Virus record (IMG/VR): IMGVR_UViG_3300032893_000021
Span: 1-64,000 of that record
Direction: 5' to 3' (one strand)
Source of the DNA: a virus
Length of the DNA stretch: 64,000 nt
Shown here: positions 5,991 to 25,300 of the stretch, one piece after another
Layout: every line of letters begins with the position of its first letter
Numbering within the stretch: position 1 is the stretch's first letter
The notes under the pieces: model-generated
The model's database searches: none
What the model saw: only the letters and a program-made list of their open reading frames with translations
Told to the model about the DNA's origin: nothing
Made by a program: the position numbers and the translations under genes

Positions 5991-5993
5991 GGG

Positions 5994-6022: not shown

Positions 6023-6029
6023 CCCGGGG

Positions 6030-6323
6030 ATGAAGAGCGTGACGGCGACCGAGTTCGACAAGACGTGGCGACGCCTGACCGGCGCGGCCGAGGTCACCGC
6101 GTACGGCAGGGTCATCGGCGTCTGGACGCCCAGCTGGTCCCCGGCGTCTGCCTCGGGTGGCGAGGTCCCGGCCCCGCCGCCCGCATCCGGTCCCGGGCGC
6201 CAGCCTGGACCGGATGCGGGCGCGCCGGGAGACCCACCCCTCTCGGCGCGCCCGCCGTCGCCCGTCCCGAAGCCGACGTCGACCAGGCCCCGGAAGTCGA
6301 GGGGAATGGAGCTCCGGCCGTGA
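6030..6323 (+). CDS. Phd/YefM-like antitoxin or DNA-binding protein with Pro-rich tail
   Basis: N-terminus MKSVTATEF...AEVTAYGRVIGVWTP resembles the Phd/YefM beta-alpha-beta start. Confidence 0.45.
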   Translation: MKSVTATEFDKTWRRLTGAAEVTAYGRVIGVWTPSWSPASASGGEVPAPPPASGPGRQPGPDAGAPGDPPLSARPPSPVPKPTSTRPRKSRGMELRP

Positions 6324-7070: not shown

Positions 7071-7420
7071 CCATCCAGCCGTACATGGGGCGGCAGGCCC
7101 GCCGCCTGACCGTCGCCCTGATCGCGGACGCCGCGACGTTCGCCGCGTTCGCGTGGCTCGTCGGCATGAACGGCGCCCACGTCGAGCGCAATCCCCTCGT
7201 GGGGGCCGTCTACGCGGGCGGCGGCGTCATGGGCGTCGTGGCCCTCAAGCTCGCCGCAGCGTGGCTCCTGGAGTGGCGCGCGCGGTCCTCGCGGGCCGAG
7301 GTGGGCCGGTGGTACGCGGGCGGCTTCGCGCTGCTCTCCTCGCTCGCCATCGCGGGCACCGTGGTGGGCGCGGGCTTCAACGTCGCGTCGCTGCTCGACT
7401 CGATCCGGGGAGCCGTCTGA
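7067..7420 (+). CDS. Small multi-pass membrane protein (ExNP motif)
   Basis: Three hydrophobic segments and an ERNPLV loop. Confidence 0.6.
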   Translation: MTIQPYMGRQARRLTVALIADAATFAAFAWLVGMNGAHVERNPLVGAVYAGGGVMGVVALKLAAAWLLEWRARSSRAEVGRWYAGGFALLSSLAIAGTVVGAGFNVASLLDSIRGAV

Positions 7421-7779
7421 TGCGCTTCCGGGGCACCCTCGTCCGGCCGCTCGCGGACCAGGCCGACCTCGACGGCAACTTCATCGATCCCGCGGGGGTC
7501 GAGTTCACCAATCCAGTCACGGTGTTCGTCGAGTTCGACTACCGCAACCCGGTCGGCCGGGCGGTGGTGTCGCGGGCGCCGGACGGCTCGCTCGTGGCCG
7601 AGGGGGAGCTGGGGATCGACAAGCCTGCGGGCCTGCGCATCGCGGCCGGGGTCGCCAGCCTCGGAGACTTGAAGCGCACGCAGGGCGGCCGCGTCATCTC
7701 GGCCTGCCGCCTCAACGCCATCGGCCTGACGCCGAACCACAGCGATCCGGGCCAGCCGGAGATCGAGGAGGTCCCATGA
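7420..7779 (+). CDS. Degenerate HK97-type prohead-protease-like protein
   Basis: Pattern DLDGNFIDPAGV..PVTVFVEFDYRNPVG..DGSLVAEG..GRVISACRLNAIGL follows the prohead protease fold, but the catalytic His and Ser are not evident. Confidence 0.45.
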   Translation: MRFRGTLVRPLADQADLDGNFIDPAGVEFTNPVTVFVEFDYRNPVGRAVVSRAPDGSLVAEGELGIDKPAGLRIAAGVASLGDLKRTQGGRVISACRLNAIGLTPNHSDPGQPEIEEVP

Positions 7780-8920
7780 CCCAGCCGAGGGCCACGTCGA
7801 CCCAGGGCCTCCACATCCACGCGTGGCAGCCGGTCGGGCTCGTCGAGATCAGGATCCCGTCCGGGATCGGCTGGGAGCCGGGCCACGACGTCGTGTTCGC
7901 CTGCGCCTGCACGGCCGTCAAGAGCGTCCCGGTCCTGCACCGGTCTGACGTGGCGGCCGCGGCCGCCGCCACGGCGCGCCTGGACGACGAGGACGGCGCG
8001 TGATCGAGCAGGCCCCCAGGCCCCTGATCGTGTCCGAGTCCGTCGTCTCCCTGGTCGAGGAGCAGGAGGGCACCCTGCTCTCGCTCCTCGCGCCCGGCTG
8101 GCCGGTGGCGGAGAGGTGGGCCGAGACGGTCAGGCGCTGCCGGATGGCGTCGATCTCGCTCCGCGACGCCGCGTGGACGGTCCTCGCCGAGGTAGCCGAC
8201 GGCCACCCGACGTGCTGGGTCTGACGTGAGGGGCTACCGCGCGGTCCTCGTCCCGTCCCTCGACGAGCAGCGGGCGATCGGCCTGGGGCACTTGATCGAT
8301 CCCGAGGACGCCGCCCGCTTCGTGCGGTCGCTGATCGGCGTCCCGTCCTCGGACGCCGGGCCCCTCCGGGTCCTCGAGCGCGTCTGGGTCGAGGACGGCC
8401 GCCTGCTCGGCGAGTGGCGGCTCCTCCACGACGCCCCGTCGGTCGTGCTGGCGTGAAGCCCGCGACCCTCTACGACCACGTCCACGGCGTCGCCCACCTG
8501 ATCGAGCGGTGGACCGAGCGGGACGAGGCGGACCCGCTGCGGGCGCGCCGCGCGGTCCTCGCCTGCGGGTCCGCCGACCCGTTCACGGGTCCCAGGAACT
8601 GGTGCGTCACGGGAGCCGCGAGCCTCGGCTACTGCAGATTCCGCGACCACCGGGCGATGCCCAGGTGCGGCCCGTGCGCCGAGGCCCTACCGGAAGCGCC
8701 CGCGGGCGGCTAGGATGGGGCGGTGAACAGCCAAGCGCCCGATCAATCGGACACCTACGGCGTCGCCGCCGCGCGGGCCTGGGCCGCCGCGGTCCATTCC
8801 TTCTGGAAGCAGCTCCGCGCGTCCGGCATGCCGCCCAGGGAGGCGCTCGCCTGCACCGTCGCGATGATCCGGGCGGCCAGCCCGTCGCGCGTCGACTCCA
8901 ACGAGGAGGACTCGAAGTGA
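7776..8920 (+). other. Run of small hypothetical ORFs (7776-8003, 8000-8224, 8226-8456, 8453-8713, 8723-8920)
   Basis: Overlapping start/stop chain; several Cys pairs. Confidence 0.5.
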
Positions 8921-9216
8921 ACCTGACTCCAGACCAGTGGCAGGCGGCGGTCGCCGTCCTCGTCCCGCTCGTCGTGGGCCTCCTGAAGCAGGCCCGGCTG
9001 CCGGACGTCTACAACGCCCTGATCGCGATCGCGGTCTACGTCGTCGCCGGGCTCGTCGCCGTCCCCGTCTCGGGGCAGGCCCTCACGATCGACAACATCG
9101 TCCCCGCCATCGCCACGTTCACGGCCGTCGGGACCATCGCGTACCAGCTGTTCTGGAAGTCGTTCGAGTCGACCGCGGCGGCGGCTAGGCTGCGCCTCGG
9201 CCACGGACCGGCCTGA
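8917..9216 (+). CDS. Putative holin
   Basis: GAGGAGG SD, GTG 8917; about 99 aa with three hydrophobic segments and a basic C-terminus; lies upstream of two peptidases. Confidence 0.6.
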   Translation: MNLTPDQWQAAVAVLVPLVVGLLKQARLPDVYNALIAIAVYVVAGLVAVPVSGQALTIDNIVPAIATFTAVGTIAYQLFWKSFESTAAAARLRLGHGPA

Positions 9217-9507
9217 CCCGTGGCCCGCAAGAGGGGCGGGCGCGGACTCGCCCGGCGCGTCCGAGGGCTGGAGCGCGAGCTCCGGCGGCGCGACCACGAG
9301 CTGGCCCGCTACCGCGCAGACGTGATGGCGGGCGTCCTCCTGCTGCTCCAGGAGCACGCGCCGCTCGACTCGGGAGACGCAGGGGTTCACGCGTACTACG
9401 ATCCCCTGCTGGGTCGACACCAGGGATGGCCGGGGCCGCACTACTGGCTGCCGGGGCCGCCCCGGCCCGAGAACACGTCCGGGGGGACTGGGGGCGGCGG
9501 GTGACGA

Positions 9508-9813
9508 ATGGACTTCGAGGCCGTCGGCAAGCTGATCTCCGATGTCGGCGTCCCGCTCGGGATCCTGATCGTCTTCGCGTGGATGCTCGCCACCGGGCGG
9601 CTCCGCACCCAGCAGGAGACGGAGCGGCTCACGGAGTCGCTCGAGTACGCCGAGCGGCTCCGGGCCGAGGAGCACGAGGCGAGGCTCAGGGCCGAGGAGC
9701 GGACCGACGAGGCCATCAAGGTGATGGAGGAGCACACCGAGCTGCTGCGGGAGATCGAGCGTGACATACTACGCCAGGGCGGGAGCCGCCGTGCCCAGCG
9801 TGACGGAGGGTGA
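9508..9813 (+). CDS. Membrane protein with coiled coil (lysis-cassette type)
   Basis: N-terminal TM GVPLGILIVFAWMLA followed by an E/R-rich helix. Confidence 0.55.
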   Translation: MDFEAVGKLISDVGVPLGILIVFAWMLATGRLRTQQETERLTESLEYAERLRAEEHEARLRAEERTDEAIKVMEEHTELLREIERDILRQGGSRRAQRDGG

Positions 9814-9982
9814 GCCGGTCGGGGGGCGCGACTCCAGGCGCGCAGAGGAGCGCGCCGCGTCCGAGGCGCTCATGCGCCGGGCTGACAGGTCGATCAAGCG
9901 GGCCCGCGCCGTCGAGGCCAACGTGCGGCGGATGCTCGCCGTGTACCTCGAGCGCGAGGCGAACGGAGGCGGCGGAGGGTAG

Positions 9983-10303
9983 TTGGATGCGGCAACCCAA
10001 TCGCTCCTCGCCACATCGCTGGTGTCGGTATACGCCGCCCTGCTTGCGGTCGGGGCCGTGTCCACGGCCGTCCGCGTGGCGCAGTTCCGCCGCACCGGCC
10101 GCCGCCCTCCGCGCCTCCTCAAGAGGGATCTCGCGCTCCTGTCCGGGCACTCGGTCGCGCTCGCGGCGGTCCTGGTCCCTCGCGCCCTCGGCATCCTCGA
10201 CGCTGTCGACGGCAGCGCGGTCTGGTGGGTACTCGTGGGGGGCGGCCCGATCGTCGCGATCACCGTCTACGTGTACTACGAGCTCTTCGTGATCGGGCAC
10301 TGA
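9983..10303 (+). CDS. Small three-TM membrane protein
   Basis: GGAGG then TTG; three hydrophobic segments. Confidence 0.55.
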   Translation: MDAATQSLLATSLVSVYAALLAVGAVSTAVRVAQFRRTGRRPPRLLKRDLALLSGHSVALAAVLVPRALGILDAVDGSAVWWVLVGGGPIVAITVYVYYELFVIGH

Positions 10304-10713
10304 TGGACCAGCGGATCCTGCTCTACGTCAAGTGGCGGGACGGCGACTGCGTCGCCCGGTTCGCGAACCACCCGCTCTGGGCGACGCGCTGGCCGATGCT
10401 CCAGGGCCTGCCGGACCCGGGGCCCTGCCGCGACCGCTTCGGCGCGCTCCTCGACGCCGTCCGCCCGGTCCCGGCGATGCACCTCGAGGGCGACCACGTC
10501 CCGGACGCGGACGGGCACGCGATGGGGGCCAAGGCGCCCGACGACGCGGCGCACCTCTGGGGCGTCTGCGCAGGGCACCACACGGGGACGTCGGCCGGGC
10601 GGCAGTGGGCGACGCACGCCGAGGTCAGGCGGGCGGCGGCGCTCTACATCGCCGCCGCCAACGAGGCGGCCGCGGCGCGCTGGATGAGGCCGCCGGAGGC
10701 GGTGGCGTCGTGA
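10303..10713 (+). CDS. HNH-like nuclease domain protein
   Basis: RDGDC...LEGDHV...LWGVCAGHH pattern typical of phage HNH proteins. Confidence 0.5.
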   Translation: MDQRILLYVKWRDGDCVARFANHPLWATRWPMLQGLPDPGPCRDRFGALLDAVRPVPAMHLEGDHVPDADGHAMGAKAPDDAAHLWGVCAGHHTGTSAGRQWATHAEVRRAAALYIAAANEAAAARWMRPPEAVAS

Positions 10714-11362
10714 GCCGCGCCGCGCTCGCCGTCCTGTCGCCGACGCTGGTCGTCTACGCCCCGGCGTCCGGGACCAAGGCCGACCTGCACTACCTGCAGA
10801 CGGCGCTGGCCGACGCGGCCGCGGATCTCGGCATCAGGGTGCTCGTCGTCCCGGGCCCCGCCGACGTCGTCAGCCTGGTCGACTGGCCCGGGATCGCCGA
10901 GGCCGCCGAACGGGTCTCCGAGGCGATCGCCCTGCGCCTCTCCGAGGGGCCGCCGTGAACTGGCTGGTGGCAGTCCAGGCCGTCGCCATCGTGGCCGTCG
11001 TCGCCATCCTCGACTACGCCCGCAGGTCAGCCGAGCGAGCCCGCGCCAGCGCCGCGTCGGAGGCGGCCGACAACCTCGCCCGGGCCCTCCGCGCCGAGGC
11101 GGCCCTGGACGCCTGCGAGGCCGACAGGGTCAGGGACCGGCCGCGCGCCCCGGCCGTCGTCTCGCCCGAGGCGAGGACGGCCCTGCGCAGGACCGTCCCG
11201 TGCGGTCACTGCGGCGGCTGGCACCTGAGGGCGTGCCCGCGCCTGAAGCGGATCAGGTACAGGCCCGACGGAGCGACGCCGCTCGAGGCCGAGTACTGGC
11301 AGGACTGGACGGACGAGGACGTCGTCTGGCCTGAGTCAGTGTACGAGGAGGGAGAGGCATGA
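10710..11362 (+). other. Two hypothetical ORFs (10710-10958; 10955-11362, TM plus coiled coil plus CxxCxxxHxxxC)
   Basis: GTGA overlaps; motifs read directly from the translation. Confidence 0.55.
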
Positions 11363-12132
11363 CGTACCATCACAAGCACGTCTCGGAGCTGCCGGACAGC
11401 CCGGTGGTCGAGTGCACCTGGGCGACCGGGGTCGAGCTGGCCCGGGCCGCCCTGTACGGGACCACGCGCGAGCCGCCCGCCACGGGCGTCGAGCGCGAGG
11501 CGCTCCGCGTGGCCGGGGGCGGCTCCAACGAGGGCGGCTCGACCTACATGCAGATGGCGGCCGGGTGCCAGCGCCGCTACGGCTGGTCGCCGTCCGTGAC
11601 CGAGTCCCTCGTGGCGGCGCCGGGCCGCGGGTACTTCCTCGGCGTCCAGGGCGAGTACGCCGCGCTGCCCGACCACTACAGGCGCTGGGACCCCGGCTTC
11701 GCGGCCGGGCACTCCGCCGTGGTCTACAACATCGACGGGCCGCTGATGTGGTGCGACCCGCTCGTGCCGCCGACCGTCGACGGATGGGTCGGCGAGCCGA
11801 TCTCGTGGCCGACCGTCACGGCCTACTTCAGGGCTCTGCCGGGGGCGCACATCGCGACCGCGAAGCTGGCCGTCCCGCCGCCCGCCTGGCACATGACGAT
11901 CGCCAGCGGGACGCGCGACATCGAGTACGCCCGCATGTCCCCGACCGGCTGCGTCGCCGAGTGGCTCCACTACCCGTGGAGCGGCCACGCGTCCGGCGCC
12001 CCCATCGCGACGCCGGTCGACAGGAAGACGTGCTCGACCGGGTCGGTCAACAGGCTCGCCGTCGTCAAGACCGGGAAGCTCGCCGGGAAGCTGGTCCGCG
12101 AGACGTCCCAGGTCGTGTTCCACCAGGCGTAG
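11359..12132 (+). CDS. Papain-fold (C39-like) cysteine peptidase, candidate endolysin
   Basis: ECTWAT (Cys), GHSAVV (His), WCDPL (Asp) in C39-like spacing; GAGGGAG SD. Confidence 0.6.
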   Translation: MTYHHKHVSELPDSPVVECTWATGVELARAALYGTTREPPATGVEREALRVAGGGSNEGGSTYMQMAAGCQRRYGWSPSVTESLVAAPGRGYFLGVQGEYAALPDHYRRWDPGFAAGHSAVVYNIDGPLMWCDPLVPPTVDGWVGEPISWPTVTAYFRALPGAHIATAKLAVPPPAWHMTIASGTRDIEYARMSPTGCVAEWLHYPWSGHASGAPIATPVDRKTCSTGSVNRLAVVKTGKLAGKLVRETSQVVFHQA

Positions 12133-12142
12133 GAGGATCAAA

Positions 12143-13039
12143 GTGGACTACAGGCTGGGGCGGCGTCCCCCCAAGGGCGCCCCGGCGCTGATGCTCGGGC
12201 CGCTGCTCACCGGGAAGATCCCGGCCCACCCGGCGAGCGAGGACTACCTCGCCGCCCTCGGCGGCGGCTGGCAGATGCTCGGCAACGACCAGTACGGCGA
12301 CTGCGTCGCCGTGACGTGGGCGAACGTCCGGAGGCTCGTCACGGCCGTCATCGGCCCGGGCGAGCGCTACCCGACGATGGCCGACGTGATCGAGGTCTAC
12401 AAGACCCAGAACCCGGGATTCCCGTCGCAGGACGACGGGATGGACATCCAGACGCTGCTCGAGTGGCTCGTCTCGACGGGCGGCCCGGACGGCGTCAAGG
12501 CGCTCGCGTTCGCCAAGGTCGACCTGTCCTCCAAGGACGAGGTCGAGGCGGCGCTCGCGATCTTCGGCTTCCTCTGGACCGGCATCAACGTCCAGAGGGC
12601 GAACATGGACGACTTCGACGCGGGGCGGCCCTGGGACTACCACCCCGGGAGCCCGGTGGAGGGCGGCCACTCGGTCGTCTCGGGCGGCTACACCGGGGCC
12701 GCGTCGGGCGCCGACGAGCGGTTCATCACGTGGGCGGCCGAGACGTCGTTCACCGACGCGTTCTGGGCGCGCGAGGCAGAGGAGGCCTGGGTCGTGATCT
12801 GGCCCGAGCACCTCGGGACCGGGACATTCGAGCAGGGGATCGATCAGAAGGCCCTCGCCGACGCCTACACGGCGTTGACGGGGCGCCCCTTTCCCGTCGC
12901 CCCCGGTCCCCGGCCCGACCCCGCCGACGCCGCCCTCGCCGACTCCGTCAGGGTGTGGGCTTCTGCTCGGCACTCTGGCGCTAACCGGCGCGCTGCTATG
13001 GCTGTGGAGGCGTGGTTGACGGCCAAGGGCCTGGCGTAG
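12143..13039 (+). CDS. Papain-like (C1-type) cysteine peptidase
   Basis: MLGNDQYGDCVAV (Cys), GGHSVVSGGY (His), FITWA; AGGAGG SD. Confidence 0.7.
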   Translation: MDYRLGRRPPKGAPALMLGPLLTGKIPAHPASEDYLAALGGGWQMLGNDQYGDCVAVTWANVRRLVTAVIGPGERYPTMADVIEVYKTQNPGFPSQDDGMDIQTLLEWLVSTGGPDGVKALAFAKVDLSSKDEVEAALAIFGFLWTGINVQRANMDDFDAGRPWDYHPGSPVEGGHSVVSGGYTGAASGADERFITWAAETSFTDAFWAREAEEAWVVIWPEHLGTGTFEQGIDQKALADAYTALTGRPFPVAPGPRPDPADAALADSVRVWASARHSGANRRAAMAVEAWLTAKGLA

Positions 13040-13089
13040 GATTGGCCGGGGCCCCTCCCCGGGGCCCCCCTCTCACCCGGAGGACGGTA

Positions 13090-16000
13090 CTGGCGAACCC
13101 GAACGCGATCGCAGCGGGACTGGCGGCGAGGGCCCAGGCGCAGGGGGCGCTGGCCGGTCCCGGCTCCTCGCCCCTGACCGCCTCGTACAACCAGTGGGTC
13201 GCCGGGTCGCCGGTCGGGGGCGCGGCCCTCCCGGCCCCGTTCTACGACTTCCTCGCCGGGGCGTTCGGGCCCCTGTCCCCGATCCAGCCGATGCCGGTCG
13301 ACGTCGTCCCCCGGGACGACGAGGGCCGCCCGCTCCCGCGCCGCTGGCAGTACCCCGTCGGCTGGAACCTCCCGGTCGGACAGCCAGGCACGGAGGGCTA
13401 CCGGCTCGCCTCCTACGCCACGCTCCGCCGCCTCGCCGACGGGTACTCCGTGATCCGGGCGATGCTGAACATCCGCAAGAACGAGATGTCAGGCCTCAAC
13501 TGGGACGTCGGCGCCACGGGCGACGCGCAGTCGAGGACGAAGGGTGACAAGGGGGCCGCGAAGGACCAGCGCTCGCGGGCGGCCGAGGTCGTGCGGTGGT
13601 TCAAGCGCATCGACTCGAACTACTTCGGGTTCCAGTCGTGGTTCGAGGCCGGGCAGGAGGACCAGCTCGTCATCGACGCCGTGACCCTCCACCCGCTCCC
13701 GACGCGCGTCAAGGGGAAGGGCCTGTTCGGCTGCGGCGTCGCCGAGCTCGAGCTGATCAACGGCGAGACGATCAGGCCGCTCGTCAACATCCGGGGCGCC
13801 TCGCCGCGCTTCCCGGAGGTGGCGTACCAGCAGTACCTCTGGGGGGTCCCCCGCTCGGACTTCGCCGCGATGGCCCGGGACGAGGACGTCGAGGAGCTCG
13901 CGGTCGACTACGGCCTCGACGGTGTCGAGCCGGACGCCGAGTACACGCGGCGCGAGCTGCTGTACCTGCCGCGGAACCAGCGGACGTGGACGCCGTACGG
14001 GTTCAGCCCGATCGAGATGGCCCTGATCCCGGTCACGATCGGCATCCAGCGCCAGGGCTTCCTGCTCGACTACTTCACCGACGGGACGATCCCGGGCGTC
14101 TACGTCATCGCGGGCGAGTCGTACGTGACACCGTCCCAGCAGCGCGGGCTCCAGGACCTGATCAACGGGATCGCCGGGGACGTCGGGCAGAAGCACCGGG
14201 CGATCGTCCTGCCGCCGGGCTCCAAGACGGAGCCGCAGAAGGACATGACGTTCCAGCAGGCGGTCGACCAGGCGATCGTCGAGCAGGTCGCGATGATCCT
14301 CCACATCCAGCCGCACGAGATCGGCATGGTCCCGGGCGGCCGGACCAGCGGCCTGGGCGGCGCGGGCATGGCCCAGGTCCAGCAGGACTCGGTCGTCGAG
14401 AGCCGGACCGAGCCCGAGCGCAAGTGGTGGAAGGGGAAGTTCGACTGGCTGATCCAGGAGGTCATGGGCCAGGAGGACCTCGAGTGGAAGTGGCTCGACT
14501 TCGAGGAGGAGCAGGACGCCGAGCAGAAGGCGAACGCCGACAAGGCGGACGTCTCGATCGGCAAGCGCTCGATCGACGAGCAGCGCATCGACGACGGGCT
14601 CGACCCCTGGGACCTGCCGCTCACCAAGACCCCGTTCGTCATCGGCGGGCCGTCCGGCATCATCCCGCTCGACCCCTCCGTCCCGCCGCCCGCGGCGCCC
14701 GCCCCGGCCGGGCCCGGCGGCGCCCCGGGGCCCGGCGGCTCGCCCGCCCAGGGCGCCCTGGCGGAGGCGCTGAAGCCGGACGGCAAGGACGCCTCCAAGC
14801 CGAGGCACGACCCGGCCGCCGCGCTCCTGTCGGACAAGAAGAAGGACCGCCGGAAGGGCCGCAAGGAGCTGGCCGACCGGTTCGCCGACAACCTCAAGGA
14901 CGCCGTGAAGGACAAGCCCGCCGTCCTGGGCGGCGCCGCCGGGCCCGGCGCGGCACTCGAGCCGTCCTCCGCGGGCGAGGGGGCCGACAAGGCCAAGGGG
15001 GCCACGGTCGCCGACCTGATGAAGTGGCGCACCAGGTACAACGACTCGAAGCTGCCGCGGATCGTCCACGACTACCTGCTCCGCTCCTACCCGAAGGGCG
15101 ACATCGACTGGTCCGAGGACCCGGCCATCGCCTGGGAGTTCGATCCCCACGTCAAGCTGTCCGACATCGACATGGCGCGGCGCCCGGGCGGGCGCGACCC
15201 GTCGAAGGTGTCCGCGATCGCAGACACGGTCGGCAAGGGCGCGTCGATGGACCCGGTCGTCCTCGTCGAGTACGAGACGCCCGACGAGGCCGGGCTGAAC
15301 ATCGCCGACGGCTGGCACCGCACGCTGGGCGCCGAGAAGGCGGGCGAGGACGAGGTCCCGGCGTTCGTCGGGCGCGGCGTCCCGGACAAGTACCGCGACC
15401 TGATCGACGGCCGCATGCAGGACGACTCGGGCAGCAAGAAGAAGGCCGCGCTCGCCGAGCTGTCAGTCCTCGGGCGGTACGTCCGGAAGCACGGGTCGGC
15501 CGAGGGGTTCGAGGCCCGCGCGATGGACCCCGACGTGGTCAGGCTCTTCAAGGCCGAGACGGCGCGTGGCGAGACCGGCCCGGCCCTCGAGCGCGCCCGG
15601 CGCCGGGTCCTGAAGGAGGGCGGCAACCCGCAGGCCCTCCGCGACTGGTACAACGCGGGCGCCGACGGCCAGATCGACTGGGGCTCCGACGGCGACTTCG
15701 ACCAGTGCGTCTCGGTCGCCTCGAACTACATGTCGGACGAGGACGCCAGGGGCTTCTGCAACCTCCGGCACCAGGACGCCGTCGGCGGCGCGCCGGGGAC
15801 CGAGAAGAACTTCAGCGTCGGCTCGCCGCTGGCCTCCGGCCTCGCCCCGTACGACCTCGACACGGGCGAGCGCCCGGCCATCGGCCCTCGGTGCACGTCC
15901 TGCGGCGCCGCGCTGTTCCCGGGCTCGGCCGACTACGGCGACGGGCGATGCGCCGACTGCCAGATCAGCGAGGACGTCCAGCGCCGGTCGCCAGGCGAGC

Positions 16001-16842
16001 CGATGTTCAACGACTCGGCCCCGGCCGTCCTGCTCCGCGCGATCGAGGCGGAGCTCACGCGGCGCGGCGTCGACCTCGCCAAGTGGAACCCCGACCAGCC
16101 CCGCGACGACAGGGGGCGGTGGACGGCGGGCGGCGGCCCGTCCGGCGAGGTCCCGGTCGTCCAGGACACCCGGAAGATCGGCGACTTCCCGCAGGAGGTC
16201 CAGGACGCCGCCCGGTCGGTCACCGCGCGCGCCGCGGCCGCCGAGCCCAGGGTCACCGCAGACATGGCGCACATCGCGTCGGCCACCGGCGGGAACCTGA
16301 ACGAGCGCTTCACGGGGCCGGACGGCAAGGAGCACGGGACGCTCGACGCCGTCCTGAAGAGCGACAGCTCGACCGCCCGCAAGATCGCGGACGACATCCG
16401 CGACAAGGGGTACACGACGGCCCAGTCGGCGGCCCAGGTCTACGACGCCCTCCGGTACACGGTCACGTACCCGGCGGGCGAGTACGCCAAGGGGGCCGAG
16501 CGGGCGATGGACGACCTGAAGGCGGCCGGGTACGAGCCGCTGCGCGGCAAGGACTTCTGGAGCGACGCGAGCCAGGGGTACGCCGGGGTCAACACCGTCT
16601 GGGGCGACCCGCGCACCGGGCAGAGCTTCGAGGTCCAGTTCCACACCCCGGAGGCCCTCCAGTACAAGGAGGGCGTGGGGCACCCGGTCTACGAGGCCTG
16701 GCGCGCGCAGCCGGAGGGCTCGGCCGCCCGGGCGTACTACGACTCGAAGGTCAACGAGGCCTGGCAGCCGATCCGGGACGCGGTCCCCTACCTGGACGCG
16801 CTCAAGGACTTCATGACGGGGATGTTCCCGCCGCGGAACTAG
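13090..16842 (+). CDS. Portal protein fused to a ParB-like domain, a small Cys/Trp domain and a RelA/SpoT-like nucleotidyltransferase (start CTG 13090)
   Basis: Portal features (DQLVIDA, LELINGETIRP, YLPRNQRTWTPYGFSPIE, YFTDGTIPG, SIDEQRIDDGLDP) over about 13090-14650. ParB motif DPVVLV..IADGWHRTLGA at about 15250-15340. Synthetase motifs KSDSSTARKI, DALRYT, GYAGVN, FEVQFHT at about 16350-16650. Confidence 0.88.
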   Translation: MANPNAIAAGLAARAQAQGALAGPGSSPLTASYNQWVAGSPVGGAALPAPFYDFLAGAFGPLSPIQPMPVDVVPRDDEGRPLPRRWQYPVGWNLPVGQPGTEGYRLASYATLRRLADGYSVIRAMLNIRKNEMSGLNWDVGATGDAQSRTKGDKGAAKDQRSRAAEVVRWFKRIDSNYFGFQSWFEAGQEDQLVIDAVTLHPLPTRVKGKGLFGCGVAELELINGETIRPLVNIRGASPRFPEVAYQQYLWGVPRSDFAAMARDEDVEELAVDYGLDGVEPDAEYTRRELLYLPRNQRTWTPYGFSPIEMALIPVTIGIQRQGFLLDYFTDGTIPGVYVIAGESYVTPSQQRGLQDLINGIAGDVGQKHRAIVLPPGSKTEPQKDMTFQQAVDQAIVEQVAMILHIQPHEIGMVPGGRTSGLGGAGMAQVQQDSVVESRTEPERKWWKGKFDWLIQEVMGQEDLEWKWLDFEEEQDAEQKANADKADVSIGKRSIDEQRIDDGLDPWDLPLTKTPFVIGGPSGIIPLDPSVPPPAAPAPAGPGGAPGPGGSPAQGALAEALKPDGKDASKPRHDPAAALLSDKKKDRRKGRKELADRFADNLKDAVKDKPAVLGGAAGPGAALEPSSAGEGADKAKGATVADLMKWRTRYNDSKLPRIVHDYLLRSYPKGDIDWSEDPAIAWEFDPHVKLSDIDMARRPGGRDPSKVSAIADTVGKGASMDPVVLVEYETPDEAGLNIADGWHRTLGAEKAGEDEVPAFVGRGVPDKYRDLIDGRMQDDSGSKKKAALAELSVLGRYVRKHGSAEGFEARAMDPDVVRLFKAETARGETGPALERARRRVLKEGGNPQALRDWYNAGADGQIDWGSDGDFDQCVSVASNYMSDEDARGFCNLRHQDAVGGAPGTEKNFSVGSPLASGLAPYDLDTGERPAIGPRCTSCGAALFPGSADYGDGRCADCQISEDVQRRSPGEPMFNDSAPAVLLRAIEAELTRRGVDLAKWNPDQPRDDRGRWTAGGGPSGEVPVVQDTRKIGDFPQEVQDAARSVTARAAAAEPRVTADMAHIASATGGNLNERFTGPDGKEHGTLDAVLKSDSSTARKIADDIRDKGYTTAQSAAQVYDALRYTVTYPAGEYAKGAERAMDDLKAAGYEPLRGKDFWSDASQGYAGVNTVWGDPRTGQSFEVQFHTPEALQYKEGVGHPVYEAWRAQPEGSAARAYYDSKVNEAWQPIRDAVPYLDALKDFMTGMFPPRN

Positions 16843-17080
16843 CGGCGTCACCGCCCGGCCCGGCGGTCAGGTGGTGCGCCTCGTCCGGCGTGATCCGGAG
16901 GTAGTCGAGGCCGCCCCGCTCGATCGCCCGCGCGAGGCCCTCGCCCGGGACCGCGGTCCAGCCGCGAGCGCCCGGGTCCCAGCGCTCGACGGCGCCGCTC
17001 GCGTCGCCCATCCGCAGGACCGCGAGCGGGTCGTCGGGGTGGGTGCGGAAGTAGAGCCATCCCAGCTCGGTCGTCGTCAT
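16811..17080 (-). CDS. Small protein (89 aa) convergent with the portal 3' end; candidate immunity protein
   Basis: GGAAGG SD and ATG at 17080 (MTTTELGWLYFRT...ERWDPGARGW...RITPDEA); overlaps the portal end by 32 nt. Confidence 0.6.
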   Translation of the reverse strand: MTTTELGWLYFRTHPDDPLAVLRMGDASGAVERWDPGARGWTAVPGEGLARAIERGGLDYLRITPDEAHHLTAGPGGDAASSAAGTSPS

Positions 17081-17169
17081 GGACCTTCCTTCCCGCCCAG
17101 GCTCGGGGCTCGCGCCCTGGCGGCCTCGTCCGCCCGGCACCCCATCGTACCGCCCGCGCTCCCGGCTGG

Positions 17170-17553
17170 CTACCGGCTCGAGGCCTCGTACTGCGCCCAG
17201 GTCTCGAACCAGTCGTGGACCGGGACCGGCCCCAGCGAGGGCCCGACCGCCCCGAGGATGCCCTGGCGGCGGGGGGCCTCGCCGGTCAGCGCCCGGAGCG
17301 CCGTCTGCCAGGCCTCGCTGTACTCGCCGTGCGCGTACGTCCCGCCGAACATCGGCCCGGCCATCCCGGGCCGCGGGGGGGCCTTCACGATCGGGCCTGC
17401 GCCAGCGGGCCCGAGCTCCAGGGTCGCCTCGGGGTAGTCGCCGTCCGGCTCGTCGCCGCCCGGGACGTTGACCAGCGTGACCCCGGCCTTGCCGTGGTAC
17501 GCGCACGCGGCCGAGTCGAACGTGCCGCGAAAGATCGTGAGCCGCAATCCCAT
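17170..17553 (-). CDS. Hypothetical early protein
   Basis: GGAGG SD, ATG 17553 (MGLRLTIFRG...GPMFGGTYA..PVHDWFET); just downstream of the minus-strand promoter. Confidence 0.7.
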   Translation of the reverse strand: MGLRLTIFRGTFDSAACAYHGKAGVTLVNVPGGDEPDGDYPEATLELGPAGAGPIVKAPPRPGMAGPMFGGTYAHGEYSEAWQTALRALTGEAPRRQGILGAVGPSLGPVPVHDWFETWAQYEASSR

Positions 17554-17594
17554 CTCGTGCCTCCTGCCCGGGGCCTCCGCCCCGTCGCGAGTCA

Positions 17595-17623
17595 AGTGTA
17601 GCGCGCAGCGCCGAGGATGTAAA
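17595..17623 (-). promoter_or_regulatory. Sigma70-type promoter TTTACA-N17-TACACT
   Basis: Reverse complement of agtgta(17595-17600)...tgtaaa(17618-17623); 17-nt spacer. Confidence 0.7.
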
Positions 17624-17631
17624 CCCCCCTC

Positions 17632-18599
17632 CTAGAACATCTCGTCGTACTCGGCCCGGGAGACGAAGCGCAGGACGCTCGTCGCCCCGTGCCCGTGCCC
17701 GGCCGCGTGGTACGCGATGTCGCAGGGCGCCGTCCACTCGACGCGCCAGGTTCCGGGCCCGACGCACTCGAGGAGGCGGTACTCGCCGCAGCGGTCCTCG
17801 GGGTCCTCGCCGGGCCCGAAGTGGATCCGGCCCTGGAAGTCGACCCGCCCGGTCTGACCGGCCCTGCGCGCGCTCATGCGAGCTGCCTCACGGTGCCGAG
17901 GCATCGCAGGCAGGGGACCCAGCGTCGGCCCCCGATCGAGCGCTCGGCGCCCTCCCGGCGCCTGTTGCCGCAGCGGCAGCGCCAGCCGGACGTCGCCGCC
18001 CGGGCGCGCGCCCTCGTGCAGTCCATGCAGACGGCCCAGGGGCCGAGGCCCAGGGGCTTGCCGCAGCCCTCACAGGGGCTTCCCATCGCGTCCTCCCTTC
18101 AGACAGCGTAGCCGAGCATGGAGTCGTCGGCGTCCGCCGCGGCCTCGCGGAGCGCCTCGCCCGTCAGGTACCCGTGGACGTAGGGCCGGAATGGGTTCGT
18201 GTCGCCCGGCTCCCCGGCCTCCATGTGCGCCAGGTGGGGCCAGTACATCCCGTCCCAGGACGCCGCGGCCAGGTTCAGCAGGTCCCCAGCCGTCCAGGGC
18301 TCGTCCGTCTCGAAGTCGTCCCCGTAGCTGTTGAACGCGGCGCCGTGGCGGGCGTAGACGTGGCCTCGCGTCATGCGGCCCAGGAACTCGCTGCCCGGGA
18401 CCCAGTACGCCTCGCCGTCCGGCCCGCGAAGGTCCCGGGCGCCCGAGCGGGTCCGCGCCGTCCAGCCGACCTTGACGAGCGTCAGCCGCTCGCCGTACCG
18501 CTGGACGTGGACGTCGATGTCGACCCAGGACTCGTAGCCCTCGGCCGGGATGTCGATCCGGTGGGCGCGGTGCGTGTCGCGCCGCTCGCCGTCTCCCAT
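17632..18599 (-). other. Three minus-strand hypothetical ORFs (18599-18099, 18086-17874 Cys-rich, 17877-17632)
   Basis: GGAGG SDs before ATG 18599 and 18086; ATGA overlap at 17874-17877. Confidence 0.65.
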
Positions 18600-19927: not shown

Positions 19928-20422
19928 ATGGACGACGTGGACGCGATGACTGACCTGACGGCGCTCCCGACCGAGGCGCTGGTCGAGATCAGGGAGGCGC
20001 TGAAGTACAACCCCGACCAGCCGCGGGACGAGCGCGGGCGCTGGACGGCGGGCGACTCCACCGGCGCCGCCTGGGCCGACGCGAAGGCGCGGATCGCCGC
20101 CCACGGCCCCGGCAACTGCTACCCGGCCGCCGCCACCCTGGCGATGCGAGCCGACGAGCTCGGGCTCCGCAACGCGCGCGTCGTCCACGCCACATGCACT
20201 GGGCAGGGCGCCATCGCCGGGAAGGCGTTCGGCCACGCCTGGGTCGAGGCGGACGGCCCGCACGGCATCCGCGTGGCCTACGACTACAGCGGCGGCAAGG
20301 AGGTCGAGCTCCCGGCGTCGTTCTACCGGCAGCTCGGAGAGGCGCGCGGCGTCAGGGAGTACACGCCGCGTGAGGCGATGGTCCAGATGGTGAAGACGGG
20401 GCACTACGGGCCGTGGGCCTGA
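19928..20422 (+). CDS. Tagged cargo protein with a Cys-His-Asp (transglutaminase/papain-like) domain
   Basis: K|YNPDQPRDERGRWTAG tag, then GNCYPAA, FGHAWVE, VAYDYS. Confidence 0.65.
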   Translation: MDDVDAMTDLTALPTEALVEIREALKYNPDQPRDERGRWTAGDSTGAAWADAKARIAAHGPGNCYPAAATLAMRADELGLRNARVVHATCTGQGAIAGKAFGHAWVEADGPHGIRVAYDYSGGKEVELPASFYRQLGEARGVREYTPREAMVQMVKTGHYGPWA

Positions 20423-21900
20423 CCGGGCTGTTCACCGAGGCTGGCCGCGCCGGGGTCGCCCTGGCGCCGGACCACCGCGCGCGCGCCGAGGCGGCCAGGA
20501 CGCTCCGCTCGGACGCCCGCCGGGAGGCGACCCTCGCCCCGGTCGTCGAGCGCGTCCGGCGCGAGCTGCTGGAGGCGGCGCGCGAGGGCGCCGTCCTGCG
20601 CGAGCCGGTGGCCCGGAAGTTCGACCCGTCCGAGCCGCGGGACGAGCGCGGCGAGTGGACGGCCGGTGGAGAGGATTCGATCAGGACGGAACTATCGTCG
20701 GCGCGCGAGGCGATGGATGCGGCCAACGACGCGATGTACATGGCCGAGCAAGACGGAGACGACGACGCATACGACCGAGCGGCAGCAAGGTGGGCGGAGG
20801 CCAACAGCCGACACGAGGCCGCCGAGGACGCGCTGCGCGGGCTTGGCAAGCGCGACGGAGACAACCAGCATTCCGGATCTGCGACCAAGGCCGAGTGGGA
20901 CGAGGGGGCGCACCCCCGCGTCCCGGCCGGGCAGGAGGGCGGCGGGGAGTTCACGGACGGCGCGGGCGGCATGACGCTGGAGCGGTACCGCGACGAGCGG
21001 GCCCGGATGGAGGCCCTGACGGACGCCAACCGGGCGGAGCTCCGGGGCGGGTCCATGACCGGCCCCCCGCCGCGGACGGCGGCCGGTGTCGGCCCCCCGG
21101 CGGACGTGTGGGCGGCGTGGCACGAGCGTGCCGAGTACAACGTCGCCCAGGCGGCCGCCCAGCGCGGCGAGACGGCGGAGGAGTTCACATCGAAGCTCCA
21201 GGCCCAGGCGGCCGCCCTCGTCGACAAGTCTGACGTCAGGGTCCGGTGCACGCCGGACGTCCTCGGGAAGATCCTCGGGGACGGCAGGTTCAAGTCCCAG
21301 TTCGAGACGAGGACCTCGAACGGCCTGCTGAACCTGGCCACGCGCAGCGGCATGGAGACGCAGGCGTTCGGCTACGCGCCGCGCCTCGACACGTCCGCGC
21401 GCCCGGTCTACGGCTACATGAACACGCGCGGCCTGACCGGGGCCGACGAGGAGAAGAGCTTCTGGCTCCAGCAGTACGGCGGCGCGATCGTCCACCTCTC
21501 GGACGCCGTCCGGGACCGGACGACCTTCACGTTCGGCGACTCGCTCCCGATGTCGGGCGTGCCGTGCCCCGTCTCCGACCCGCGCTGGGAGGCGACCGAC
21601 CCGCAGTACGACCATCTCGGCTGGCACGTCGACCGGTCGTCCTTCCCGCCGGGGCTCGACTACTCGGAGCAGTACCCGGCCGCGTGGTCGTGGATGGTTC
21701 GGGAGGGGCCGGACGCCGACGCGGTCGCCGCGACGACGCCGTCCGGGGCCACGCTCGACTACATCGAGGCCCAGGTCCACGGCGGCGTCAGCGCCTCCGA
21801 CATCGCGTCGGTGGAGCTGCCGTCCGAGCCGGACCCGGCGCTCAAGGCGCTCCTCGACGGGGCGTCGATCCCATACACGGTGTACGGAGGCAAGTCGTGA
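20413..21900 (+). CDS. Doubly tagged protein with a C-terminal DUF3626-like domain
   Basis: Tags at 20617 and 20887. C-terminal GRFKSQFETRTSNG..RPVYGY..QYG..RTTFTFGDS..YIEAQVHGGV matches the DUF3626 pattern as recalled. Confidence 0.65.
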   Translation: MGLTGLFTEAGRAGVALAPDHRARAEAARTLRSDARREATLAPVVERVRRELLEAAREGAVLREPVARKFDPSEPRDERGEWTAGGEDSIRTELSSAREAMDAANDAMYMAEQDGDDDAYDRAAARWAEANSRHEAAEDALRGLGKRDGDNQHSGSATKAEWDEGAHPRVPAGQEGGGEFTDGAGGMTLERYRDERARMEALTDANRAELRGGSMTGPPPRTAAGVGPPADVWAAWHERAEYNVAQAAAQRGETAEEFTSKLQAQAAALVDKSDVRVRCTPDVLGKILGDGRFKSQFETRTSNGLLNLATRSGMETQAFGYAPRLDTSARPVYGYMNTRGLTGADEEKSFWLQQYGGAIVHLSDAVRDRTTFTFGDSLPMSGVPCPVSDPRWEATDPQYDHLGWHVDRSSFPPGLDYSEQYPAAWSWMVREGPDADAVAATTPSGATLDYIEAQVHGGVSASDIASVELPSEPDPALKALLDGASIPYTVYGGKS

Positions 21901-22357: not shown

Positions 22358-25300
22358 GTGCCCGACCTCCTCTCGGCGCTCCCGACCGCCGACCTCGCCC
22401 GCCTGCGCGCCGACCTGCTCCGCTACTCGGAGGACGAGGCGCGGGACGACAGGGGGCGGTGGACGGCGGACGGGGGTTCGGTGGACGTCGGGCCCGGCTT
22501 CCGCACGTCGGGCGTCCCGCGCGAGTACGGCGACCGCGTCCTGTCGACGGTGGGGCGCCTGTCGGCCCAGTTCCCCGGCGTCCGCATCGCGGTCGACGCC
22601 CGGACCGGCGACGACTTCCGGGCGACCTCGACCGGCAGGGACAAGCCGGGGACGGTGACGATCGCCCGATGCGAGGGCAACGCCCTGCGCGGCCAGACCA
22701 TCGTGCTCAACGGTGGCCAGGTGTCCCTCGACGACGTCAACCCCCTGACGGCCGTCCCCGGCCCCGAGGGCGTCGCGGCCCACGAGTTCGGCCACGCGGT
22801 CGACGCGTACATGATGACGGCCGGGGCCGGTCTCAAGGACCTCGGCGGGGACGCGATGCGCGACTACCTCGACTGGCGCCAGCGGCTCCTCTCGACGCAG
22901 GGCATCCGGGGCTTCGGGTCGTCCTACTTGACGGGGCGCCTCGACGCCTCGGGGAGGTACGAGCGGGTCCGCCTCGGGTGGTCGAAGCTGTCCTGGTACG
23001 CGGGCACCGACCCGCGCGAGGCCGTGGCGGAGGCGTTCAGCGCGGCGTACACGCCCGGCAGCCCGGGCTACGACCACCCGGCGTGCGCCGAGCTCCGCGA
23101 CGTGCTCGCGAGGGCCGGGTCGGCCGCTTCGGCGTCGGGCAAGGCCGTCAAGTTCGACGACTCCGAGGAGCGCGTCCCGGCCGGGTCGCCCAACGGCGGC
23201 CAGTGGACCTCCGGCGGCGAGGCGCTCGCGTCCGAGGCGGCGGCGTACGAGGCGCGGTGGCCGAACAAGGCGGTGCTCGACACGGTCCCCGAGGGCCTGA
23301 CGCCGGAGCAGACCGCGCTCCTCGCGTCGCTCGGGCTCGACAAGCCCCAGCCCGCGATCCAGCCGGACTTCGCCGCGATCGCCGACCCGCACCACGGCCT
23401 TGAGGCGGTCCGCGAACTCGCCCGGCTGCGCGAGGCGTTCCCGTCGATCCGCGTCTCGTCGCTGGAGATGCGGATGCCGTCGACGCTGATCAACTCGTCT
23501 CCGTCGGACGACCAGCGCGTCGTGGCCCGGACGGTCATCGACTCGATCGTGCTCAACCCCAACTGGTACGGCAAGGACGGGCCGTCCCTCGACCAGTTCT
23601 CGGACGGCGCCAAGTACCACCCCGACGGGTGCGGGACCCCGGCCGGGTGCATCACCCACGAGTTCGGCCACGTCCTCGACCACGCCCTCGAATACGACCA
23701 GACCGCCGCGGGCGAGGCGTACCGGCAGTGGCGCTCCGACTACCTCTCGTCGGGCACGCGCATCTCCGCCTACGCCCGCACGAACGAGTGGGAGGCGATC
23801 GCAGAGGTGTTCTCCGCCGCGTACGCCCCCGGCTCGCTGGCCACGGGCAACTGGGGCGCCGTCGGCCTCCGGGACGTCCTTTCCTCGACCGGCGTGTACA
23901 CGGGCAAGGCGGCGACGGCCGACCTCGCCAAGTGGAACCCCGACCAGCCTAGGGTACCCGCGGGCGAGCCAGGCGGCGGCCAGTGGGAGGGCGGCTCGCC
24001 GGTCGCCGGGGCGTTCCGGTCCGCGCTCGACGGGATGCCGAGGCCGTCCGGCTCGATCGCCGCCCAGGTCGCGTTCCACGACTGGTTCAAGCAGGCCTCC
24101 GGGGGCGACGGGCAGTGGGACGTCTCGGCGCTCTCGCGGCAGCCGGACACGGGGCGCTTCTCCGCCTCGATGGCCGTCCTCTCCGCCTCGTTCCCCGACG
24201 TCACGGGCGGCGTCGGCGTCAAGGTGACGGACGGCTACGCGATCCACGCCGGGGTCGGGACCGACGCCGTCGCGTGGGCCGACTCCCTCGCGTACCCGCA
24301 GACGGTGACGCTCGAGAAGATGATGTGGGCGACCGGGGCGACCCGGCTCCAGTGGGGCGACGAGGCGTCGAACGGCTTCCACCCCGAGGGCTGCTGGGCA
24401 CCCGAGGGCGTGGCCGCGCACGAGTTCGGGCACCTCGTCGACGCCGTGCTCCGCGACACGGCGGACGACGAGAGGGTCGCCGACCTGAACGCCTTCCTCC
24501 TGACCCACACCGCCTCGGGCTACGGCGCGCGGTCCGGCACCGAGAACTTCGCCGAGTGGTTCGCGGCCGCGTACTCCCCGACGTCGCCGCTGGCGGGCTC
24601 CGCCGACTGCCGCGACTTCCGGGCGATCGTCGAGTCGTCGATGGTCCGCAAGTACGACGCCAGCGAGGCGCGGGACGAGCGCGGCCGCTGGACGGCCGGG
24701 GGCGGCGGGCTCGACGGCCTGACGCTCCGGCTCGACGGCGTCCACCCCGACATCCGCCCGGGGCTGGAGTCGACGCTCGCCCGCATGGCCGACCGCTACC
24801 CCGTCCTCCGCGAGCGCGGCCTGATCGTCAACCGGCTCCCGACGATCGGCGGCGCCCTCGCCGACACGGCGTACCCGATGCCCCAGACGTTCTACAAGGC
24901 GTCCATCAACCTGAGCTCCGCGTACGAGCGACCCGGCGACCCGAGGTGGGCCGAGGAGCCCGGGTGGTCCGTGTCGCAGGGCCCCGAGGGCACGCTGGTC
25001 CACGAGATCGGGCATGCGCTCGACATGTACAACGGCGGCGCCGGGGCTCGGGCACTGGAGGCGTCCGGGCCGTCGCGGGGCGCGTACGGCGGGACCCGGT
25101 ACGGCACGGCGGCCTCGCTGTACGGCGCGACCGGCGGCCCCGACGAGCGGTTCGCCGAGGCGTTCGCGCAGGTCAACCTCGCGCCGGAGTCGGAGTGGTC
25201 GCCGGACGCCCGGATCGTCGCCGCGCTGTACCCGCCCGTCACCAAGGCCGCGGCGCCCGACTTGACCAAGTCGCTCCGGTTCCTCGACCGGGCGCGCTCG

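Follow-up and report, generated by a model that had tools for sequence, protein, structure and literature searches.

Alarmone synthetases of the toxin type have been described on several carriers. For the synthetase SaEAS, production of (p)ppGpp and (p)ppApp at a rate of ~1e5 per minute has been reported, as has toxicity in the cytoplasm, and the carriers which the same report names for such synthetases are LXG, XopAD, MuF, DUF4157 and Rhs/PAAR, a portal not being among those named (PMC12691689). Apk1/Tas1 and the MuF-fused Apk2 have been reported as (p)ppApp synthetase toxins with Tis1-like and Aph1 immunities; in that account, the carriage of MuF/Apk2-type head toxins in virions and their injection were still unknown (Ahmad 2023, PMC10083569). 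MuF polymorphic toxins consist of a carrier inside the head and an exchangeable C-terminal toxin, 'RelA-like' ones among them, usually with a short open reading frame (ORF) following, and the proposal is that they are packed into heads and delivered together with the DNA (Jamet 2017, PMC5576092). Among the polyvalent proteins, DdrB-like ParB and RelA/SpoT domains are recurrent, and PBECR and 2H domains are fused to MuF or portal (Iyer 2017, PMC5512222). Portal genes fused to further head-protein domains are also reported from Microbacterium phages (Jacobs-Sera 2020, PMC7302621), and the T7 portal Gp8 binds host RelA/SpoT synthetases and lowers (p)ppGpp (Kronborg 2026 preprint, 10.64898/2026.01.27.700999). 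We found no published portal-borne alarmone synthetase in the literature, supplementary listings aside. Here we describe a candidate: a portal gene with a long C-terminal extension in virus record IMGVR_UViG_3300032893_000021, of which we analysed the first 64 kb (positions 1 to 64,000; hereafter the window). The complete IMG/VR record has 89,286 bp, a CheckV completeness of ~82% and a G+C content of ~73%; the phage is uncultured, and its high-GC record was assembled from a metagenome.

The portal gene is a single reading frame that continues from a portal core through an arm of identifiable domains to a synthetase with intact catalytic residues; the arm is shared up to a short tag with portals that end in other tails, and an immunity-type ORF lies nearby. 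We read the gene as the only portal of the phage, extended into a 'polyvalent' cargo arm whose terminal synthetase would be packaged in the head, cut free, injected and make alarmones in the next cell, and we put the probability of this reading at about 0.6.

A PDB sequence search with the last ~230 residues returned one match, 8VX3 (SaSAS, that is SaEAS; E=6.4e-14), and a profile of the family matched 8VX3 at 3.3e-56 and Tas1 at 2.6e-11, the long Rel/RelA enzymes being marginal. The AlphaFold2 (AF2) model of the domain has a predicted local distance difference test (pLDDT) score of 95.0 and a predicted TM score (pTM) of 0.90. In Foldseek, 8VX3 was again the best PDB match (E=8e-12, TM 0.69/0.78), followed by Tas1/Apk1 (6OX6, 1e-7), RelP, RelQ-type small alarmone synthetases (SAS), CapRel and Rel; there were 29 fold matches at E<=1e-3 and, among the matches listed, every one was a synthetase of the RelA/SpoT homologue (RSH) superfamily. 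NCBIfam gave the XopAD C-terminal region (E=4e-24); in Pfam and NCBIfam, only the C-terminal end of XopAD-type models was matched. When 1.84 billion representatives were searched, 2851 were related at E<=1e-3, of which 1214 also passed E<=1e-10.

The synthetase core is marked by four motifs: K-S-x3-S-x2-R-K, D-x-x-R on the central strand, G-Y-x-G, and E-x-Q-x-H/R-T. An earlier note on this DNA, made by reading the sequence, had assigned four strings of the portal C-terminus to them and called the domain RelA/SpoT-like, and both the assignment and the call are upheld by the sequence and fold matches. K1116, K1124, D1145, R1148, E1207 and Q1209 are invariant among 46 sequences (the query and 45 short representatives). 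The Asp of DALRYT, D1145, pairs with chain position 86 of 8VX3; as the construct begins at G36, this is residue D121 of SaEAS, and D121A is the change used to inactivate SaEAS, present in the crystal form (PMC12691689). The FEVQFHT strand is identical in SaEAS and the portal domain. The domain is a member of the RSH synthetase superfamily, of the SaEAS/Apk1 clade, with its catalytic residues intact. By analogy with SaEAS, synthesis of (p)ppGpp and (p)ppApp is its most likely chemistry.

The N-terminal part is a portal, as the earlier note had proposed. Pfam Phage_portal (PF04860) matches residues 294-458 with E=5.8e-10 (39.3 bits, just above the cut-off of 39.1; 42.1 bits in a scan of the whole record, in which this is the sole PF04860 match), and phrog_2662 ('portal protein') matches residues 100-637 with E=1.2e-37, over profile positions 23-509 of 717 only. 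In tblastn, residues ~83-555 were matched by genes annotated as portals in Thermoanaerobacterium, Brevundimonas, Alicyclobacillus and Arthrobacter phages. MuF proteins match phrog_2662 at positions 485-711; as the present match stops at 509, this portal is without the MuF part that some portals carry, and a Pfam scan of the protein did not find the MuF domain (PF04233). Among the 25 matches listed in a search of INPHARED phages, each was to the portal core or the synthetase part only, and no record covered 80% of the query.

The two parts belong to one gene. The ORF is uninterrupted over 1276 codons from the GTG at 13012; the database copy (P0002) starts from a TTG at 13042, where the upstream gene has just reached its stop, and has 1266 amino acids (aa). 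The G+C content at third codon positions (GC3) is just 0.78 over the first 50 codons, so the exact start is uncertain. From 13162 to the stop, GC3 is 0.94-1.00 in a single frame across all junctions, from which we conclude that portal and extension are one coding frame. In the Logan assembly of run X1, which was made independently, a 52,342-bp contig matches 14314-17200 with 0 mismatches and 0 gaps at ~76x depth, and a second contig of 2,069 bp matches 12900-14343; run X2, from another sample, yielded exact short pieces, one of which (16704-16974) crosses the end of the portal gene. The run depths and the many short joints and loose ends in this comparison stem from contigs of other organisms at 90% likeness. 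Given the GC3 profile, the Logan contigs and the relatives of the same layout described below, it is very unlikely that a misassembly or frameshift, a risk raised in the earlier note, has joined portal and arm. All 11 motif strings read in that note are found in the translation where it had placed them (Table 1), as are the lysine-bounded borders of its modules, with 'ADLxK' in the consensus of relatives; as the motifs fall in invariant columns of the family alignments (synthetase n=46, ParB n=42), they are not chance.

Table 1. Features of the portal gene and of the adjoining candidate immunity ORF (nucleotides numbered within the window).
Feature	Residues	Nucleotides	Strand	Basis
Whole gene: portal with ~700-aa C-terminal cargo extension		13012..16842	+	ORF, GC3, Logan contig
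Portal core	~100-560	13309..14691	+	Pfam, PHROG, tblastn
Linker, Pro/Ala/Gly-rich, then Lys/Asp-rich	561-666	14692..15009	+	read from translation
ParB/Srx-fold module	667-865	15010..15606	+	AF2, Foldseek, invariant columns
ADLMKW	667	15010	+	string located
IADGWHR	764	15301	+	string located
Module B, small helical, WGSDGDFDQC..GFCNLRH	866-931	15607..15804	+	phrog_6439
VLKEGGNPQ	866	15607	+	string located
GFCNLRH	914	15751	+	string located
Disordered capsid-like peptide, after border K: NFSVGSPLASGLAPYDL		15805..15882	+	likeness to capsid residues 61-83
CxxC...CxxC zinc-knuckle-like element	961-983	15892..15960	+	strings; kept in relatives
CTSCG	961	15892	+	string located
CADC	980	15949	+	string located
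Leader helix and 'tag', …LLRAIEAELTRRGVDLAK-WNPDQPRDDRGRW-TAGGG		16024..16131	+	motif scan, AF2 helix
DLAKW	1021	16072	+	string located
SaEAS/Apk1-type small alarmone synthetase domain (SYNTH)	1045-1276	16144..16839	+	sequence, fold, residues
KSDSSTARK	1116	16357	+	string located
DALRYT	1145	16444	+	string located
GYAGVN	1189	16576	+	string located
EVQFHT	1207	16630	+	string located
89-aa ORF, candidate immunity protein		16811..17080	-	BLASTP, hhalign, GC3, weak complex prediction

Between portal core and synthetase, the best characterised part of the arm is a module with the fold shared by ParB N-domains and sulfiredoxin (Srx), laid out as a beta-alpha core (~707-790) and a helical extension. 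The earlier note had called it ParB-like and suggested a structural comparison, which found ParB/Srx matches for this module just as it found RelA/SpoT-type matches for the synthetase. The AF2 model of residues 660-1045 has a mean pLDDT of 79.3, the ParB part being mostly above 90 per 10-residue block, and its 19 Foldseek matches in the PDB at E<=1e-3 were solely to ParB/KorB/Noc/PadC/Spo0J and sulfiredoxin-type proteins, including ParB (6sdk, E=6e-5) and Arabidopsis sulfiredoxin (6ky4, TMt 0.74, root mean square deviation 2.7 A); the fold matches in BFVD were viral ParB/Srx proteins. D766, G767, H769 and R770 are invariant in an alignment of 42 sequences, the G-x-x-R, whose Arg is the conserved active-site residue of the superfamily, aligning with the KorB/serine-kinase region. 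Sequence comparison gave fainter signals: a PDB search with the module alone returned no match, a profile of 7 sequences gave 11 weak PDB matches (E 0.019-2), 10 of which were ParB/KorB/Noc/Spo0J or free serine kinase, and an Atlas look-up of residues 660-865 produced a sub-threshold lead (Sulfiredoxin/ParB_N, 0.88). PF02195 is precomputed on several relatives, including two of six stand-alone ones, and 2 of 7 aligned homologues match it (best E=0.016). The model comparison confirms the ParB N-domain/sulfiredoxin fold; a role in nucleotide binding (CTP or ATP) or as a nuclease that nicks DNA is only predicted. An Asp/Asn ending strand 2 and an extra helix with a conserved Tyr have been given as marks of DdrB-like ParB domains (PMC5512222).

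The remaining elements of the arm are small. The linker resembles that of close portal relatives. Module B, helical in the AF2 model, has phrog_6439 (function unknown; residues 869-933, E=8e-11) as its sole match; Pfam and NCBIfam gave none, and the Atlas look-up of 866-1020 gave a sub-threshold lead of 0.75 only. In relatives it occurs with or without the ParB module. It is followed by a peptide (935-957) that shares 12 of 23 residues with positions 61-83 of the capsid protein (window 38442-38510; E=7.6e-4) and has a pLDDT below 50 over most of its length. This motif, with the Cys-rich knuckle after it, is kept in all 22 relatives covering the region; the peptide may serve for cleavage by a maturation protease or for binding to the shell. 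Beyond a sub-threshold match to a Pfam zinc ribbon (zf-ChsH2, E=0.029), Pfam and NCBIfam gave nothing for the knuckle. A leader helix (positions 344-358 of the AF2 model) then leads to the tag, K-W-N-P-D-Q-P-R-D-D-R-G-R-W (conserved form K-x-N-P-D-Q-P-R-D-x-x-G-R-W), immediately before the synthetase. The strict motif Q.R[DNE]..G[RKQ][WFY] occurs three times in the window (16096, 20018 and 36226) and never in reversed translations, and in 13 of 150 representatives of the synthetase family the tag stands directly upstream of the synthetase domain. In the looser form K-[YW]-[NS]-x-[DS]-Q-x-R-D-x-x-G-R-W, it precedes cargo-like domains in three head-region proteins (16096-16122, 20018-20044 and 36226-36252). 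The DNA encoding the tag (16087-16109) recurs at 20009-20031, and this repeat is a possible recombination point for cassette exchange.

A search of long proteins with residues 660-1045 found 77 others (P0166-P0242) that share the middle modules. The portal core is present in 69 of them and the ParB module in 64 (BLASTP), and the synthetase in none (BLASTP and profile). Relatives at 55-60% identity have portal, linker, ParB module, module B, knuckle and tag in one protein. The tails of these portals include Zeta toxin, NUDIX, ADP-ribosyltransferase (ART), PI3/4-kinase-like and DUF5872 domains, some with inteins. The 28 proteins with tails of at least 150 aa group into 11 tail clusters. The synthetase tail stands alone, and the idea that all tails differ had to be dropped because the largest cluster links 14 of the 28. 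Of the 45 ParB-module carriers analysed on viral contigs, 25 are portals (45 of 46 loci, L096 being left out since it matched the module B part only). Judged from these alignments, portal plus ParB is a common architecture with differing tails. If the NUDIX domains hydrolyse nucleotides or alarmones, NUDIX-tailed portals could be the opposite of the synthetase-tailed one.

Approached from the synthetase, the picture is one of a rare join. None of the best 150 synthetase representatives has a portal core. A PHROG scan of nine long synthetase proteins found MuF-type head domains in four (P0014, P0016, P0025 and P0027) and the portal core in none, and a Pfam scan of eight found one WXG100 protein. 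The best-scoring representative, P0010 (2495 aa), is of WXG100 type (type VII secretion) and has three matched synthetase stretches. We also analysed 80 of the 255 viral loci that encode a relative (eight carriers whose frame reaches the locus start may be incomplete). One of them, L057, has a complete 803-aa portal gene with a tag-like motif and a synthetase, without the middle modules, between the large terminase and MuF genes. Its identity to the query is 30% in the portal and 32% in the synthetase, and its rank by synthetase similarity is 57 of 80, which points to a separate portal-synthetase join. A further protein, P0012 (619 aa), has the ParB module, knuckles, leader-tag and synthetase at 53-61% identity; it begins inside the ParB module and was probably cut by the contig end. 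The combination of portal and synthetase is thus rare but recurrent, being present in the query, L057 and probably P0012. When 11 neighbour proteins were compared with the 80 synthetase loci, tblastn gave no match. The C-terminal domain of one head-region protein (495 aa; 20413-21900, + strand) is DUF3626-like and homologous to the ORFs directly after the synthetase carriers in L038 (989-1852) and L052 (tblastn E=3e-25 and 8e-12), from which it appears that DUF3626-like and synthetase cargo types co-occur in other phages.

Synthetases of this kind are commonly followed by a small gene. In 70 of the 80 loci, a same-strand ORF of at least 60 aa (mostly 63-91 aa) comes next; the largest cluster of these (n=24) includes the ORF of L057, a 136-aa ORF for which we found no Pfam or PDB match, and clusters 0, 1, 3 and 4 are inter-related (hhalign probability 25-95%). 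At the present locus, an 89-aa ORF converges on the portal gene and overlaps its 3' end by 32 nt, in a frame supported by GC3. Among 105 small GC3-supported ORFs of this genome, it is the sole one with a BLASTP match (E<=0.01) to the post-synthetase ORFs. With hhalign, three cluster profiles were compared with all 105, and every one of the three ranked it first (P=0.016, 0.007 and 0.0026), with 42-56 aligned columns as against 1-14 for decoys. It has the invariant Trp of that family and its C-terminal E-[IV]-[TS]-x-x-E-A helix motif. Complex prediction with the synthetase gave a median ipSAE of 0.57 (runs 0.57, 0.39 and 0.69; best of 3 controls 0.00), with a partner pLDDT of at least 67 and contacts agreeing by at least 47%; in the calibration of the tool, 0.60 or less was the score of just 7 among 80 solved complexes and of the two mismatches, out of 110, that passed. 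By the same tool, a prediction in this range is more often wrong than right unless the pairing is likely beforehand. These comparisons tip the odds slightly in favour of the 89-aa protein being an inhibitor, that is the immunity protein, of the synthetase domain.

Together with 21 ORFs in loci L005-L081, the 89-aa ORF makes up a nameless family of ~75-aa proteins whose genes, on viral contigs, come right behind those of SaEAS/Apk-type synthetases; kelch and glycosyltransferase matches of this family in the PDB (E 0.01-0.5) were judged to be chance. When ten neighbouring ORFs were scanned with Pfam, those that are small and lie downstream had no match. Four further minus-strand ORFs at 17170-18560 (141, 90, 70 and ~153 aa) have no family match, the 70-aa one being Cys-rich, and together with the 89-aa ORF they make up one convergent block between head genes.

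How might such a protein work? In solved portals, the C-terminal end faces the capsid interior, and portals are dodecamers. The arm, running from the linker through the ParB/Srx module, module B, the capsid-like peptide, the knuckle and the leader helix with its tag to the synthetase, would enter every procapsid with the portal dodecamer, in up to 12 copies. It may then be cut at its disordered linkers, during head maturation or on entry, and the freed synthetase would leave with the DNA into the next cell. There it would transfer pyrophosphate from ATP to the 3'-OH of purine nucleotides, giving (p)ppGpp and/or (p)ppApp, which would drain ATP and GTP and shut down host growth early in infection, or intoxicate cells without the immunity protein. 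In the producing cell, the 89-aa protein would restrain the enzyme. The proposal in the earlier note that up to 12 copies per head are injected at infection is plausible.

Several observations weigh against this reading or parts of it. As the portal stays in the virion, injection requires a cleavage that we only infer, and a Pfam scan of five head-region proteins did not identify a prohead protease of canonical type. Neither a tyrosine integrase or serine recombinase nor an alarmone hydrolase (HD_4, NUDIX or MazG) was found in the 89-kb record, absences which are weak because that record is only ~82% complete. Pfam RelA_SpoT (PF04607) does not match the synthetase at E<=1 or at E<=10, the clade apparently being too divergent for it, so that the assignment rests on similarity to the SaEAS/Tas1 clade, fold and motif residues. 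The ParB module of the query is likewise without a Pfam or NCBIfam match, and the E-values of its PDB profile search are marginal. As to immunity, the 89-aa ORF is read from the strand opposite to that of the portal gene, which has no ORF behind it on its own strand; HMMER searches of the genome with the cluster profiles gave no significant match (best E=0.21); the ORF has no close relatives in viral contigs; and its family (22 members) corresponds to no Pfam family, nor did the family profile match Tis1. Finally, run X1 is probably the source sample of the record, in which case its assembly does not represent an independent sample.

One other explanation is that the synthetase does its work in the producing cell, without injection. 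Being fused to a late-expressed portal would then only time its synthesis, copies in the virion being incidental or trimmed, and alarmones made late in infection by free or cleaved arm protein might, for example, arrest host metabolism, exclude superinfecting phages or time lysis. There is no evidence of ejection, and the portal remains in the capsid; full-length Apk2 reportedly shows lower toxicity than the toxin domain by itself (Ahmad 2023, PMC10083569), and fusions may accordingly be regulated; and an immunity-like gene in a separate convergent block fits control in the producing cell. Yet the synthetase family recurs on head-internal carriers (MuF and portal) after a shared tag, which head loading explains more easily, and related portals swap the tail for other effector-type domains. 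We consider action confined to the producing cell unlikely on these grounds. A different question concerns the product: the domain could be a toxic SAS (toxSAS) of the CapRel, FaRel2 or PhRel2 type that pyrophosphorylates tRNA and blocks translation via the CCA end. CapRel and FaRel/FaRel2 are indeed among the fold matches (7ztb at E=3e-4; 8pu1 and 8pu3 at 2e-3 to 4e-3), and the catalytic motifs are common to the whole superfamily. However, SaEAS and Tas1 lead the fold matches by several orders of magnitude and are the only significant matches to the family profile, with no tRNA pyrophosphokinase at E<=1, and both are nucleotide pyrophosphokinases (PMC12691689), which makes activity on tRNA quite improbable here.

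It is scarcely credible that the fusion is an artefact of misassembly or frameshift, or that the synthetase is a dead structural remnant. The record is metagenome-assembled, and the Logan contigs of X1 break at 14314-14343, inside the portal core. Against an artefact stand the single frame seen in GC3, the 52-kb contig that runs over 14314-17200 without a difference, the repetition of the synthetase join in L057 and P0012, and the portal-to-tag layout shared by relatives; against a dead remnant stand the presence of all six invariant residues and the very confident model. Injection of a cargo synthetase from the head remains the reading we prefer. A further extension of it is more tentative, and we would rather doubt than expect it to hold as a whole: the portal may be a fixed 12-copy loading dock for swappable effector cassettes, in which the conserved arm order, up to the tag (K-x-N/S-P-D-Q-P-R-D-x-x-G-R-W), directs processing by the head-maturation machinery and retention or ejection of the enzyme behind the tag, the tag DNA serves as the recombination point through which cassettes pass from one head gene or phage to another, and an early-type immunity gene on the opposite strand is timed apart from the late toxin.

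The neighbourhood of the gene is that of a head module. Large terminase and portal genes are usually adjacent; in this record, with the large terminase at 2298-4160, they are set apart by ~9 kb (4160-13012) in which most ORFs are small. A MuF-like giant protein of 1448 aa is encoded by a separate gene (22358-26704, + strand; weak PHROG matches) and has sub-threshold Pfam matches to zincin peptidases at residues 434-491, 624-694, 876-895 and 1343-1365. These would fit multiple metallopeptidase (MPTase) cassettes, which might process head cargo.

With this portal, a kind of phage head cargo already known from polyvalent and MuF-type head toxins has a new carrier. Because the synthetase is covalently part of a protein that every capsid needs, at a known copy number, it must enter the procapsid unless the arm has been cut off beforehand, and this phage is a natural test case for whether, where and in what form such a toxin is stored. 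As portals sharing the arm end in Zeta-toxin, NUDIX, ART, kinase-like or synthetase domains, the comparison suggests that portals, like MuF proteins, may be a general carrier of polymorphic cargo. A phage-borne alarmone synthetase on one portal stands against the alarmone-suppressing portal described for another phage (10.64898/2026.01.27.700999), and control over alarmones may therefore be fought for in both directions as soon as infection begins.

Among known systems, SaEAS of Streptomyces albidoflavus (PDB 8VX3, PMC12691689) is the closest solved relative by sequence and fold. It is described there as free, Sec-exported and without an immunity gene, whereas the present domain is the C-terminus of a portal, has no signal peptide context, and lies after a tag of head-cargo type and with a candidate immunity ORF adjoining. 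Apk1/Tas1 of the P. aeruginosa type VI secretion system (6OX6), the second-best fold match, belongs to the same clade. Apk1 and Apk2 follow the same logic, in which a synthetase toxin sits C-terminal to a domain for delivery and a small protector is encoded next to it, the head context being like that of Apk2. Here, however, the portal itself takes the place of PAAR or MuF as carrier, the record has no HD-type hydrolase, and the small ORF is not detectably Tis1-like and lies on the opposite strand. In our reading, the protein would work like an Apk2-type MuF toxin but is not a member of that group, as it has no MuF domain.

MuF toxins differ in further respects. MuF is present in 1-2 copies per SPP1 head (PMC5576092), as compared with a 12-mer for the portal; MuF toxins have been reported from temperate phages, and we found no integrase in this record; and their immunity ORF lies downstream on the same strand, whereas the candidate here is convergent and overlaps the 3' end of the portal gene. 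With polyvalent proteins (PMC5512222), the portal shares the combination of several effector-type domains in one late head-associated polypeptide: two unrelated domains of this type, ParB/Srx and synthetase, sit on a portal within the head module, which brings the protein under the definition of that class, and the zincin-like matches of the 1448-aa neighbour resemble the MPTase theme of that group. RelA/SpoT domains are given in that account on MuF and in polyvalent proteins and not on a portal, and the fixed arm order seen here is not part of its description. Fusion of a portal to further head-protein domains is also annotated in Arthrobacter phage Sonali, and the portal Gp8 of T7 is likewise tied to the alarmone pathway, with the opposite sign and mechanism: Gp8 acts on the synthetases of its host, whereas the portal described here carries a synthetase of its own.

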